Shown piece after piece: positions 2,505 through 12,347 of a stretch of DNA of 12,947 bases. The stretch is from Octopus sinensis (Eukaryota). A model generated the notes under the pieces. It was not told the origin of the DNA and did no database searches. It saw only the letters and a program-made list of their open reading frames with translations. Positions within the stretch are counted from its first letter, which is position 1. Every line of letters starts with the position of its first letter. Both the position numbers and the translations under genes were made by a program. The stretch covers positions 1-12,947 of the forward strand of contig NW_021826402.1 in assembly GCF_006345805.1 (NCBI RefSeq), given 5' to 3'.

Positions 2505-2802
2505 AAATCAATAAATGGTGGGGTTGTGTTGACCACACGTGGAGAAATGATAGGCAAGGAAAAATTATAAAAAGGCAGAATGCTAAATTTAAGGAAAATT
2601 TTAATGAAAATGGGTGTATGGAAAAATTTGAAAAATTAATAAAATATATATATATTAATTCATACCGGTTTTCATCACAATGTGACTTTTCAAGAATTGT
2701 AAGGTGAAAAGACAAAAATCTTTTATGTTTGACGAGGGGGAAAAAAGAAAATTACATTGTCTTTTGCAAAAGATATAGAAAAATTAGAAAATATGTCCAC
2801 CG
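2505..2802 (-). mobile_element. (TA)n-flanked element with a degenerate minimal hammerhead-like motif (2657-2698); Penelope-like terminal repeat candidate
   Basis: Minus strand: AATTC TTGAAAA GTCAC ATT GTGAT GAAA ACCGGT AT GAATT. Stem I, stem II and palindromic stem III are present; the core is non-canonical. Confidence 0.4.
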
Positions 2803-2874
2803 ATATATATATATATAAAAGCCCGTCGTATATATGTATATTATATATATATATATATACATACGACGGGCTTT

Positions 2875-2909
<35 letters not shown>

Positions 2910-3019
2910 TATATAATATATATAATATATATATATCGGTGGACATATTTTCTAATTTTTCTATATGTTTTGCAAAAGACAATGTAATTTTCTTTTTTCC
3001 CCCTCGTCAAACATAAAAG
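2720..3019. repeat. Near-perfect 300-bp palindrome (fold-back) centred on (TA)n
   Basis: Arm 2720-2802 versus arm 2937-3019: 83 bp with 1 mismatch. Inner arms AAAAGCCCGTCGTAT (2817-2831) and ATACGACGGGCTTTT (2861-2875). Spacers are (TA)n. Confidence 0.97.
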
Positions 3020-5905: not shown

Positions 5906-5964
5906 CAATTTTTTATACAATTATTTAAAATATTTACTATTTAGTACTATTCAATTATAAATAA

Positions 5965-6150
5965 GGCGGTGATCTAGAAGAACCGTCAGCACGCCGGACA
6001 AAATGCTTAGCATCATTTCATCTGTCTTTATGTTCTGAGCTCATCCTTTCGGGGCTAATAAAATAAGCACCAGTTGAACACTGGGGTCGATATAATAGAC
6101 TTATCCCTACCCCGAAATTGCTGGCCTTGTGCCAAAATTTGAAATCAATA
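5965..6150 (+). mobile_element. SINE family A copy with internal deletion
   Basis: GGCGGTGATCTAGAAGAACCGTCAGCACGCCGGACAAAATGCTTAGC..CTGGGGTCGAT..CCTTGTGCCAAAATTTGAAA. Possible target-site duplication AATTATAAA (5953-5961 and 6154-6162). Confidence 0.85.
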
Positions 6151-6392
6151 TCTAATTATAAAAGTTTAATAAGGTTATTTGAAACATTGAGTGGCTATGA
6201 AGGTCCACCTCAATAAAATAGGAATCATAGGGGTCCATAGGTAAGAAAATGGTTAGGAACCATCGTAGAGTGTCCTTCTACAATCCCACTCGTTATCAAA
6301 GCAGGTTTGGGTGAGTTGCCGGTTTTTGTTTTGCTGGTCGTAGGGCCTTTTTCAAGTTCCATGAACCAAATCCACTCATAAGGTTTTCGAGC

Positions 6393-6798
6393 AGGCAGAA
6401 ACGTTAGCACGCCGGGCGAAAAGCGTAGCCGTATTTCGTCTGCCGCTACGTTCTGAGTTCAAATTCCGCCGAGGTCGACTTTGCCTTTCATTCTTTCGGG
6501 GTCGACTAAATAAGTACCAGTTACACACTGGGGTCGATACAATCGACTTAATCCGTTTGTCTGTCCTTGTTTGGCCTCTCTGTGTTTAGCCCCTTGTGGG
6601 TAGTAAAGAAATAAGTATTTCGTCTGCTGTTATGTTCTGAGTTCAAATTCCGCCGAGGTCGACTTTACCTTTCATTCTTTCGGGGTCGATTAAATAAGTA
6701 CCAGTTACGCACTGGGGTCGATATAACCGACTTAATCCGTTTGTCTGTCCTTGTTTGTCCCCTCTGTGTTTAGCCCCTTGTGGGCAGTAAAGAAATAG
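6393..6798 (+). mobile_element. SINE family A variant with alternative tail, present as a head-to-tail dimer (184-bp unit)
   Basis: 6431-6614 and 6615-6798 align ungapped with ~12 mismatches (hand count). Tail AATCCGTTTGTCTGTCCTTG..TAGCCCCTTGTGGG.AGTAAAGAAATA. Confidence 0.92.
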
Positions 6799-7328: not shown

Positions 7329-7558
7329 GGAGCCATCCACATTAAGAGTGACACCGATAGGCTGTACTTGTCCAGAAGAAAGGCTGGGAGGGGTTTGATC
7401 AGTTACCAGGACTGTATGGAAGTAGAAGGAAACAGCTTATGTTGTTATATATATAAAAAAAAAAATAGATGCGGAGCCATAGCTGAAAACGTTCGAAGAA
7501 GGCCGACGTCATCAAAATTGAAAATTGTGTAATGAGAGAAAAATTTAATCAGGAAATG

Positions 7559-8024: not shown

Positions 8025-8446
8025 CAAAGAAAAGAGGGAGAGAGGGAAGAGAGAAAAGTAGGTGATAGCGAGAAGGGGAGAGAGGAGAGAGAGAGAGAAT
8101 AAGAAAGAATGGAGAGAGAAAATAGAAGACAGAAATGAGAGAGAAACAAGGGAGGGGGAGAGCGAAGGAGAGAGAGAGTAGGAGAGAGGTTGATGGAGAG
8201 AGAGAAGGAGTGAGATAGTGAGAGAGAGAGGGAAAGAGGGGAAGAGAGGGAGAGGGTGAGAGAGAGAAGACGGAGAGAGGTTGATGGAGAAAGAGAAGGA
8301 GTGAGATAATGAGAGAGAGAGGGAGAGTGGGGAAGATAGGGAGAGGGTGAGAAAGAGAAGACGGAGAGAGAGATGAACTGAAGGACAGAGAGAGCGGGAG
8401 AGAAGGAGTGAGAAGGAGACAGAGACACAGAGAGGGAGAGAGGGAG
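8025..8446. repeat. Polypurine (GA)-rich tract with a ~91-bp higher-order unit
   Basis: GGTTGATGGAGA..GAAGGAGTGAGATA..GAGAAGACGGA at 8188 and 8279, partial third copy near 8370. Confidence 0.9.
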
Positions 8447-9360: not shown

Positions 9361-9369
9361 ACATTAGTG

Positions 9370-9744
9370 AAGCACTCCGTCGGTTACGACGATGAGGGTT
9401 CCGGTTGATCCGAATCAACGGAACAGCCTGCTCGTGAAATTACGTGTAAGTGCTGAGCACTCCACAGACACGTGCACCCTTAACGTAGTTTCCGGGGGAT
9501 ATTCGCGTGACACAGGGAGTGACAAGCCGGCCCCTTGAAATACAGGTACAACAGAACAGGAAGTAGAGTGGAGAAAGTTGTGGTGGAAAGAGTACAGCAG
9601 AGGGATCATCACCATCCCCTGCCGGAGCCTCGTGGAGCCTTTAGCTGTTTTCGCTCAATAAACACTCACACGCCCGGTCTGGGAATCGAAACCGCGATCC
9701 TAACCGCGAGTCCACTGCCCTAACCACTGGGCCATTGCGCCTCC
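9370..9744 (-). mobile_element. Near full-length tRNA-derived SINE (family C, OR-like)
   Basis: Minus strand head GGAGGCGCAATGGCCCAGTGGTTAGGGCAGTGGACTCGCG..GGTTTCGATTCCC with good A and B boxes. 3' hairpin GTTCCGTTGATTCGGATCAACCGGAAC. Possible target-site duplication CAAACACAT (9356-9364 and 9748-9756, low complexity). Confidence 0.88.
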
Positions 9745-9759
9745 TCACAAACACATATA

Positions 9760-10039
9760 TAGGGTGCAGTGAATAAATTGTCGTCTAAATTACGCAAAAA
9801 TAAACAAAAAAACAGACATCTTATTTTAACAGATATATTTACCGAAATTACATAAAAATATTTTGAAATACTAAAGAGTAAATTTATTCAATAAAATCGC
9901 CGTTGGCTTAAACCACGGCCTCCAGATGACTTCGGAACCACCTGCAACTCTTCTGGGCGATCTCCTTGTTTAAGTTTTTGTATGCTGACATAATCCTTGC
10001 CTTCAGTTCATCTTTGGTATTACAAGGTGTTATGTTGGT
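9760..10039 (-). mobile_element. Tc1/mariner-superfamily DNA transposon 3' end: transposase C-terminal pseudogene plus terminal repeat
   Basis: 10039-9884 translates as TNITPCNTKDELKARIMSAYKNLNKEIAQKSCRWFRSHLEAVV*ANGDFIE*, the typical C-terminus of these transposases with one internal stop. End TA-TAGGGTG resembles TA-CAGGGTG. Confidence 0.88.
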
Positions 10040-10051
10040 TAGGAATTGAGA

Positions 10052-10135
10052 AGTACTACACTTTATCGACCCCGAAAGGATAAATTCCTAACCCTTTCCC
10101 CACAAAATATTGCTGGTCTAGTGCCCAAATTAGAA
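10052..10135. mobile_element. Two short SINE family A fragments in opposite orientation
   Basis: TTTATCGACCCCGAAAGGATAAA (minus-strand core) joined to CCCCACAAAATATTGCTGGTCTAGTGCCCAAATTAGAA (plus-strand tail). Confidence 0.55.
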
Positions 10136-10480
10136 TGTACTACTACGACGACACCAAATACTATTAATTACAAGAACCGTGGAAATTCCGCGCTTATTTT
10201 GAAAACTAGACGGTTATTAAATGTTTGTAGAGAGAACGATATAAGACATTTTTTTCTTTTGAAATTGTAAATATATTCTCTCAATCATTTTAATCTTGAA
10301 ACGATGTCGAGCTCCCTTAGGAAGTACAATAGATGCAGTGTTTGGAGAGAACATATATCTTTGTGAGAAACTTGCCACCTCTTCTGCCTTGAGAGTTTTA
10401 ATAGATATTATCTTTACAACAAGGTGTAAACCATTTCAACTATGGAACAAAATAACAGACATAATCACTAATATACTGGC

Positions 10481-10670
10481 TTGAAAATTTGGTACAAGGC
10501 CAGCAAGTTTCAGGGGAGAGGGTGTAAGTCGATTACATCGACCACCGCTCAAATGATACTTATTTTATCGACTCCAAAAGGAGGAAATGCAAAGTTGACC
10601 TCGGCAGGAATTGAACTCAGATCGTAAAGCGGACGAAATGCCGCCAAGCATAATTACCTAGCTCACTGAC
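10481..10670 (-). mobile_element. SINE family A copy
   Basis: Reverse complement of ATGCTTGGCGGCATTTCGTCC..CTGAGTTCAATTCC..GAGGTCAACTTTGC..GTCGATAAAATAAGTA..GGCCTTGTACCAAATTTTCAA. Confidence 0.85.
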
Positions 10671-10740
10671 TTATAACCAACTAATTTATTCTGCGACGGA
10701 ACGACTACAATCGTAAAGCAAGTTTTAATTTACTGAGCAA

Positions 10741-11152
10741 ATAACGCCGTATTCGGTGTTCTAACAAGGCATCCACGTTAAGTTGGATATAAAGATTACC
10801 TTTTAGTATTAACACTATTTCCGTCGCTATTCATTGATTTTTAATAAGCCTGCTGGATATTTGCGGCGTCAGTATCTGAAAAGATACGGATATTCTATAT
10901 ATCATAGCAGCGAGTTTTGACTAGCATGCGGTGACCGGACGCTTTCCACTGATGATTTCCAGTAGAATGAAATTACGTGATATGGGATTTCCGTTACCCA
11001 TGACAAAGGATTCTCGTCTGTCGTGATCTATGTATGAGCTTTTATGAGAGGATCGCTCAAGGATAATAACGCAGTATCCGGTGTTCTAACAAGACATCCG
11101 TATTAAGTTGAGTATAAAAATTGCCTTCTGGTATTTATATTGCTTCCATCAC
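10741..11152 (+). mobile_element. Retrozyme-like or Penelope terminal-repeat-like element: 325-bp-period direct repeat (about 1.27 units) with internal hammerhead
   Basis: 10741-10827 and 11066-11152 align ungapped, 68/87 identical. Hammerhead motif and long self-complementary helices lie between them. Confidence 0.65.
10944..10987 (+). ncRNA. Type I hammerhead ribozyme motif
   Basis: Stem I TTCCA (10944-48)/TGGGA (10983-87); CTGATGA (10949-55); stem II tTTC-CAGTA-GAAt; GAAA (10969-72); stem III ATTACGTGAT (near palindrome); AUA cleavage triplet ending at 10982. Stem I extends further outward. Confidence 0.75.
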
Positions 11153-11153
11153 A

Positions 11154-11365
11154 GGGCGGTGAGTTGGCAGAAACGTTAGCACGCTGGGCGAAATGCTTAG
11201 CGTCATTTCGGCTGTCATTACGTTCTGAGTTCAAATTCCACCGAGGTCGACTTTGCATTTCATCCTTTCGGGGTTGATAAATTAAATACCAGTAGCGTAC
11301 TGGGTCGATTTAATCGACTGGCCTCCTCCCCACAAATTTCGGGCCTTGTGCCAAGAGTAGAAAAA
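11154..11365 (+). mobile_element. Full-length SINE family A copy with 16-bp target-site duplication
   Basis: GGCGGTGAGTTGGCAGAAACGTTAGCACG..GGGCCTTGTGCCAAGAGTAGAAAA, flanked by ATATTGCTTCCATCAC at 11137-11152 and 11366-11381. Confidence 0.95.
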
Positions 11366-11406
11366 ATATTGCTTCCATCACTAATGCTTCCATACAATTG
11401 CTTCCA

Positions 11407-11660
11407 TCTACTACATATGTGGGAAATTCTATGTTGGGTGTGTTTGTGGCGTTGTTGGCTAACTTCTCCTACATCGTTTTATCGATTTTGATGAAATTTG
11501 ACACGTGAGTAGATCCCATGTCTGGAATCCTCAGATTATTGAAAAATATCAGTTATAAGGCCCCTGGAAGGGATCTTTATGTATCAAATACATTTCATTT
11601 TAACAGCCAAGGGAAATAAGTCATTGGCCCAGATCTTAACTGCCAAGGGAAATAACCATT
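11407..11660 (+). mobile_element. Possible Helitron-like non-autonomous element, 5' part
   Basis: A|TCTACTACATA start, GTGTGTTTGTG, CGATTTTGATGAAATTTGACAC motif, and internal 20-bp direct repeat TTAAC.GCCAAGGGAAATAA (11600, 11636). No hairpin-CTAG 3' end identified. Confidence 0.3.
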
Positions 11661-12347
11661 CATTTCCCTAAATCATTTGGTATAAATCAAATTGAGGATG
11701 CTTATTTCTTAGTATTTGAACTTTTAGAGTTATTTTCGCAGTTTATCCAGTACAATCTTTAAACCTGAAGAGGGTGGTGTTGGAGAGGTAAGGGCAAGTG
11801 CGACAGCGTGGGCGGGAGCAGGATTGGGAGGTGGGTTAAGGAAGAAGCTATCGATCGATCGATCGATCAAAACATGTATAGTAGACACACAATCATATCA
11901 AATTTACTTAATTCTTCCTAGATTTAAAAATTAGTGAACAGACATAATCGATTTTCAAATCTTAACAAGTTCACATCAAAGGTGGCTAGATCACATGACC
12001 AGTCCCTGATATTGTTTTGACAGCGGGAGGCTCAACGGAGACTCTTCCGTTTCATCAGTTCAGTCGACTTCTCGTCGGGCGACCAGCTGTGTGCGCATAA
12101 ACCATGAATTGCATTTTGCATATGGGTGTGAATGAGCGTACGTGCATTAACTTACAGACGCGTTACGAGATGTATTATAATCTCAATGGCTTTTAATGTC
12201 TACCACTGTTGGAATCTATGCTTTTTGTGTGGGCGAAGTAACCATTAAATATAAGTGAGATAAATAGTAAATAAGTTGAGCAACTGACTACTAAAAGTTT
12301 TGAGTTTCTATTATTACAGACATTAAAATATCTGGTGTCAGTTCGAT

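Follow-up and report, generated by a model that had tools for sequence, protein, structure and literature searches.

A short non-coding element in the genome of Octopus sinensis is likely a fossil copy of a new, probably octopus, family of retrozymes mobilised by Penelope-like elements. The element lies in the window, the 12,947-nucleotide stretch of contig NW_021826402.1 that was analyzed here. We give a probability of about 0.75 to the reading that the locus is a retrozyme-type copy, likely inserted by a Penelope-like reverse transcriptase (RT) from circular or multimeric RNA. The copy amounts to 1.27 units, is old and decayed, and carries one hammerhead that is probably inactive.

The first-pass annotation of this DNA had described an ungapped direct repeat with a period of 325 bases, and the alignment agrees. 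Positions 10741-10827 and 11066-11152 are identical at 68 of 87 positions (78%), 17 of the 19 mismatches are transitions, and a repeat-finding program recovers the same pair (86 nt at 79%). These stretches belong to two copies of a terminal segment on the plus strand. The first copy spans 10741-10831, as delimited by repeat comparison and contig depth; the second spans 11066-11152, near what we infer to be the common 3' end of the family. The first copy and the sequence up to the start of the second make one permuted unit (10741-11065, plus strand), which is non-coding and has 40% G+C.

Between the repeats lies a complete type I hammerhead core with three stems, as the annotation had proposed, and it can be read directly in the sequence. 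The motif occupies 10925-11002 on the plus strand including its extended stem I, and the predicted cut falls after 10982. It has C3 U4 G5 A6 N7 G8 A9, G12 A13 A14 A15.1 and U16.1 H17, and stem I is open. Stem I (10944-48/10983-87) extends outward to 10925/11002 past an internal loop and is followed by the core CUGAUGA (positions 3-9; CTGATGA in the DNA) at 10949-10955. Stem II (10956-10968) consists of three pairs and a 5-nt loop, with U-U at 10956/10968 where a standard 10.1-11.1 pair is missing. The remaining segment (10969-10982) holds GAAA at 10969-72, the palindromic stem III at 10972-10981, and A17 at 10982. A custom RNA-motif descriptor that tolerates U-U matched once on the plus strand and not at all on the minus strand, and only 2 of 1000 dinucleotide-shuffled windows yielded any match to it, but the Rfam hammerhead models gave zero matches in the whole window at E ≤ 1 and none in 10700-11200 at E ≤ 10.

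We profiled the family in public sequencing runs. Of 24 runs, 20 hold part of the stretch and five hold at least half of its sampled words; none is recorded as RNA. The 15 runs that contain less than half of these words were excluded as support, save X12 and X16, which were aligned. Contigs of four runs were aligned to 10672-11152 at 80% likeness, and three of these (X4, X16, and X12) represent three organism labels. The labels yielded 1078, 1290, and 2387 aligned contigs, of which 750, 819, and 1271 are less than 90% alike to the locus copy and are therefore mostly other copies. The fractions running into unlike flanks are 0.63, 0.40, and 0.16. Since most contigs are diverged and many enter unlike flanks, the copies are dispersed, and the family is large and many-copy, although summed contig depth gives no copy number. 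Run X23, whose RNA origin is only guessed, contributed 30 contigs at low depth, none at least 95% alike, and shows neither expression nor silence. Exact pattern scans of metagenome contigs, viral contigs, and prokaryote genomes, collections unlikely to contain DNA of this animal, were empty.

The contigs also establish how the unit is arranged. Loose ends at 10740 (65, 65, and 85 in X4, X16, and X12, with agreement of 0.69-0.73) match 11043-11064 of the window. This is the sequence before the second repeat, so the unit junction preceding the terminal segment is present in other copies. The junction after the terminal segment is crossed by the pieces 10743-10979, 10772-11020, 10780-11020, and 10793-10991, and a further part of the unit is covered by the piece 10898-11046. 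Joints from 11134 to 10837, from 11150 to 10838, and from 11152 to 10838 preserve the 325 register. With both junctions found in other copies, the unit closes on itself and leaves no room for an ORF, and the family is a multi-copy one in head-to-tail (circularly permuted) order. The contig alignment thus bears out the proposal of an ORF-free, circularly permuted unit represented here by more than one unit length. No contig with two hammerheads occurs among the 32 pieces listed of ~5190; the longest of those listed is ~250 bases and none spans the stretch. At the locus itself, tandem hammerheads are absent and the descriptor scan finds a single motif.

The annotation's unit of 325 bases holds for the copy at 10741 but not for the family, whose unit is ~342 bases according to contig loose ends. 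The difference arises because the locus copy is without 17 bases at ~11043: the gap site, relative to other copies, lies at 11040-11046 (plus strand) between short TATG repeats, and loose ends before 11043 carry ~17 extra bases in 36 contigs of X16 and 54 of X12. The 5' end of the insertion, at ~10740, is probably truncated. Contig depth is zero across 10672-10722 in all four aligned runs and climbs at 10723-10756, and contig cover starts at ~10736-10740; we take the uncovered 10672-10722 merely as the edge of the family.

The right end, previously placed at 11152, had to be moved to ~11385. A SINE-like repeat lies inside the 3' end of the element (11153-11365, plus strand) and aligns with four other copies in the window. 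An exact 16-base duplication brackets it (11137-11152 equals 11366-11381), and it was therefore inserted into the second repeat copy. We take this dispersed repeat to be an octopus SINE. Beyond it are the final 4 bases of the element (11382-11385, plus strand), as judged by comparison with 10806-10845 and with loose ends behind 10816. Two short imperfect duplications of the final ~14 bases of the element follow on the plus strand to 11413, in a period-14 array at 11368-11413; these could be products of RT re-priming or of later slippage. Target-site duplications of retrozymes, where they occur, are longer than 4 bases; none was found around the element, which is an old copy, and its flanks match at best at 7 of 8 bases.

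The repeats also give an indication of age. At 13 of the 14 listed variant entries within them, the alternative letter is that of the other copy (7/7 in the first and 6/7 in the second), which means that the repeats started out alike when the element inserted and then drifted separately. Their Jukes-Cantor distance is 0.26, or ~0.13 each. Each repeat has thus diverged by about 12% from one family sequence. A divergence of 0.12 corresponds to ~33 million years on the scale reported for Octopus vulgaris (PMC13282606), by which measure the insertion would be old.

Letters in other copies bear on the hammerhead itself. The majority letters come from per-position depth shares in the best 40 of 214 variant entries; in one run or several, these entries attain roughly half of the depth or exceed it. 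Stem III had been described as one base off a perfect palindrome, and the family majority supplies that base: position 10974 is C in 77, 74, and 92% of the depth in X4, X16, and X12, which completes the 10-base palindrome. In stem I, the majority C at 10945 (62-82%) and G at 10994 (72-86%) yield standard pairs, so that at all three positions the majority letter replaces a wobble or mismatch. Position 10943 varies between U and C (C in 42-59%), and 10988 between A (46-66%) and G (28-48%). Taken separately per position, these shares are compatible with a sixth pair of stem I that comes in two alternative forms.

The U-U at 10956/10968 had been regarded as a sign that this copy may be inactive. 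We set aside decay of the locus copy as its explanation, as no majority change is visible at that pair. There are no variant entries at 10956/10968 or in the core at 10949-10955 among the 40 listed of 214, and since these high-share entries include none there, U-U is probably a family trait. An axolotl retrozyme, HHR_Amex2, is described as having the same U-U at the base of helix II and as cleaving weakly on its own but well once dimeric (PMC7229834). U10.1-U11.1 is reported in natural hammerheads as the best tolerated mismatch (PMC3088659).

Folding predictions distinguish the lone motif from a pair of motifs. In the lone motif, a predicted hairpin of 10953-10959 with 10969-10975 buries the core (probability 0.83, or 0.99 with the majority letters), and the active fold lies 6.3-6.4 kcal/mol above the lowest-energy fold. 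With two motifs, a 10-pair stem III is predicted to form between them (probability 0.97-0.995), abolishing the core-burying hairpin. Even so, the best dimer fold is lower in energy than the double hammerhead by ~6 kcal/mol, with locus letters as with majority letters, under an energy model that leaves out magnesium and loop-loop contacts. Stem II is predicted to be weak (pair probability 0.003-0.011) in all monomer and dimer folds; outer stem I pairs have a probability of 0.96-1.0 and inner ones of ~0.6. At best, these predictions support dimer dependence of the motif. Folded as a circle, the unit of this decayed copy is not clearly more stable than 60 shuffles (z = -1.2), unlike retrozyme circles, which have been described as highly self-paired.

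Depth along the unit is strongly uneven. The terminal segment reaches 6.6, 8.1, and 6.9 times the depth of the hammerhead, and 7.8-9.6 times with both copies summed. The hammerhead region has fewer majority differences and so should recruit contigs at least equally well. Loose ends behind 10797-10829 are mixed and AT-rich, with agreement of 0.45-0.65, poorer than that of the ends before 10740. Four of the 15 listed joints switch strand, each in a single contig of X4. The depth excess, mixed flanks, and strand-switch joints come from summed contig depth rather than mapped copies. This pattern suggests many 5'-truncated insertions with a common 3' end ~160-190 bases downstream of the predicted cut, and the locus copy likewise ends there. 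Penelope-like insertions are described as marked by 5' truncation, partial tandems, and inverted 5' pieces (PMC8557442).

The unit has no frame of at least 80 aa in 10741-11065, and none of three tested frames overlapping it has a Pfam match; its length (325 bases, ~342 in the family) and G+C (0.40) fall within the 150-450 bases and under 50% G+C of ORF-free retrozymes. No RT or GIY-YIG match at E ≤ 1 was obtained in 19 of the 29 frames of at least 40 aa in 9750-12340, or in three frames elsewhere in the window. An RT and GIY-YIG frame between pseudo-LTRs, as in an autonomous Penelope-like element, is therefore not seen at the locus among these 19 of 29 nearby frames. Flanking frames gave three faint Pfam matches with E about 0.1, well short of the cut-off, which we attribute to chance.

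The strongest competitor to a retrozyme, which we nevertheless consider unlikely, is that the locus is a pseudo-LTR piece of an autonomous Penelope-like element, with two 5'-truncated 3' ends in partial tandem and no mobile unit of its own. Penelope-like insertions are indeed described as partial tandems that are truncated on the 5' side and whose terminal repeats carry hammerheads, and O. vulgaris is rich in such elements, with 190 families making up 6.83% of its genome (supplement of the O. vulgaris repeat paper). An autonomous element sharing the terminal segment could also be an alternative source of its 7-10-fold depth excess. However, in such a piece the junction from the terminal segment to 10832 onward should be private to this insertion, whereas independent copies ~80-85% identical span it, with the register kept, under three organism labels. 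The 19 neighboring frames without RT or GIY-YIG also speak against it, as do the canonical proportions of the motif (stem I of 5-6 pairs plus extension, a short stem II, and stem III present), since animal Penelope elements are described as typically carrying minimal motifs. The first-pass annotation had posed the choice between retrozyme and Penelope terminal repeat as a clear one. Its retrozyme side is favored by the lack of an RT or GIY-YIG match in the 19 nearby frames and by a short junction common to other copies, but the dichotomy is not sharp, because animal retrozymes have been proposed to be non-autonomous Penelope derivatives.

Spread as DNA is improbable. A hammerhead-bearing satellite, copied by unequal exchange or duplication and without an RNA intermediate, would be in keeping with the lack of a target-site duplication at the locus, and local amplification of such units into satellites has been proposed (bioRxiv 10.64898/2026.07.22.740005). 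Yet the copies are dispersed and mostly diverged, many have unlike flanks, and the strong excess at one end suits 3'-primed reverse transcription better than DNA exchange. We give least credence, and very little, to a real repeat family whose hammerhead, a chance resemblance or one long dead, took no part in the spread. The unmatched Rfam models and an energy model that disfavors the active fold would fit this, but the motif arises in so few shuffled windows, and majority letters improve pairing in stems I and III, which chance would not lead one to expect.

The retrozyme reading places the locus in a known class. The annotation had suggested a possibly undescribed cephalopod family. A large, ORF-free family with a predicted hammerhead is upheld, but the class itself is known, with metazoan retrozymes already reported from mussels, corals, and salamanders. 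Like the locus, metazoan non-LTR retrozymes are described in PMC7229834 as non-coding, of 150-450 bases, with G+C under 50% and a type I hammerhead; unit sizes given there are 350-390 bases in mussel and 330 and 350 in axolotl, and the U-U of HHR_Amex2 is a further likeness. For those retrozymes, multi-hammerhead tandems, cleavage, and circular RNA have been demonstrated, whereas the locus is known from DNA sequence and is an old, lone copy broken by a SINE. They also differ in that the text of PMC7229834 describes no preferred 3' end of the kind suggested for the locus family. Octopus, squid, and cephalopod are absent as terms from its main text.

The retrozymes of Li, Clavereau and Pollet (2026) likewise have ~300-360-base units in several classes and occur as dispersed monomers and multimers. 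The sample described in the available text of this preprint (bioRxiv 10.64898/2026.07.22.740005) is without molluscs. It proposes that Penelope enzymes mobilise non-LTR retrozymes, as non-autonomous Penelope-like derivatives. It defines an active retrozyme by two consecutive units with complete hammerheads, so that the locus counts as a monomer and not as active, and it reports that eight of nine predicted Xenopus dimers failed to cleave. We found no sequence link from the locus family to a named Penelope element.

Hammerheads of Penelope-like pseudo-LTRs resemble that of the locus in being type I with a palindromic helix III suiting a dimer (PMC4209133, PMC8557442), and the elements share partial tandems and 5' truncation with it; inverted 5' pieces are a weak sign here (PMC8557442). 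The locus differs in having no RT or GIY-YIG frame in or near the unit, as sampled above (PMC4209133, PMC8557442), in its short helix II, compared with 7-8 pairs, and in being without the extra base and G10.1-C11.1 pair of minimal motifs (PMC4209133). The repeat-type hammerhead of Aedes is described as forming a 10-pair stem III as a dimer, like the locus palindrome, and the repeat-type hammerheads of Perreault et al. (2011), as far as compared, are unrelated to the locus in sequence; these authors discarded most repeat copies with a mismatch adjoining the core, except where their activity had been measured (PMC3088659). Four short family motifs are absent from one supplementary file of Craig et al. 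(2021), where the Octopus entries are Naiad elements only, and two are absent from the supplementary file of the O. vulgaris repeat paper. We found no literature report of cephalopod hammerhead retrozymes, though subscription papers, Repbase or Dfam entries, and supplements could hold one. If correct, our reading extends hammerhead retrozymes to cephalopods, within a class already known, including from mussel.

Published models of transcription, cutting, circularisation, and helper use (PMC7229834, PMC7761336, bioRxiv 10.64898/2026.07.22.740005) lead us to propose the following route. Tandem copies would be transcribed and cut after 10982, probably in a double hammerhead held together by the 10-base palindrome, and the unit-length RNA would be circularised by a host ligase. 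A Penelope-like RT would then prime at a preferred site ~160-190 bases downstream of the cut, and reverse transcription would usually stop within about 100 bases. For the locus copy it would have passed the cut site and continued beyond one full unit. Because the copy runs through the cut site, a cut linear monomer is ruled out as template; because it also passes a full unit, the template would be a circle or an uncut multimer. The 190 Penelope-like families of O. vulgaris mean that candidate helpers exist in octopus.

A more specific version of this route is tentative, and we consider it rather doubtful: the shared 3' end may be the RT priming site inside the circle, and the hammerhead may be a built-in dimer switch. 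The 7-pair hairpin 10953-10959/10969-10975, which involves U10.1 and half of the palindrome, would lock the core in a lone unit. The circle then could not cut itself, and the core would be released only when two palindromes of a multimeric transcript pair with each other. If true, 3' ends ~160-190 bases downstream of the cut mark Penelope RT priming within the circle, and thousands of old fragments may record the RT start site on the RNA. The motif would also offer a simple test of how the circle avoids self-cutting, a point left open by PMC7229834.

The window is animal DNA rich in microsatellites, in which one dispersed SINE-like repeat recurs several times. Whole or in part, it is present at least six times, at 10485-10672 (minus strand), 11153-11365, 6374-6798, 5956-6120, 1271-1460, and 200-560. 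One of these places includes a tandem duplication of 184 bases (6431-6797, 93%), and the hammerhead element lies between two copies in inverted orientation (arms 10554-10627 and 11218-11291, 82%). A second dispersed repeat, presumably also a SINE, occupies 9365-9750 on the minus strand. Its head, near 9670-9745, resembles a tRNA; ARAGORN detected no tRNA gene. The stretch 9365-9465 is predicted to form a multi-way junction (z = -3.6 on the minus and -2.5 on the plus strand) without CUGANGA, and a 12-mer at 9435-9446 is also present in the GAAA/stem III of the hammerhead. The hammerhead-like segment 9372-9455 was rejected, as it has no CUGANGA and no descriptor match.

Other repeats in the window include a near-perfect inverted repeat at 2720-3019 (95-base arms, 99%) with a TA-rich core, which is either MITE-like or a fold-back of recent origin. 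At 1946-2157/4893-5105 and 976-1143/4962-5129 there are inverted arms (119 and 94 bases, 96-97%), separated by about 2.7 kb; a third related copy is located near 976-1143. They are possibly the terminal repeats of a DNA transposon. A short frame fragment at 7330-7530 (plus strand), without a significant Pfam match, resembles the part of R4/Dong-type LINEs that follows the RT domain. At 8168-8370, a GA-rich microsatellite contains a tandem duplication of 91 bases (92%).
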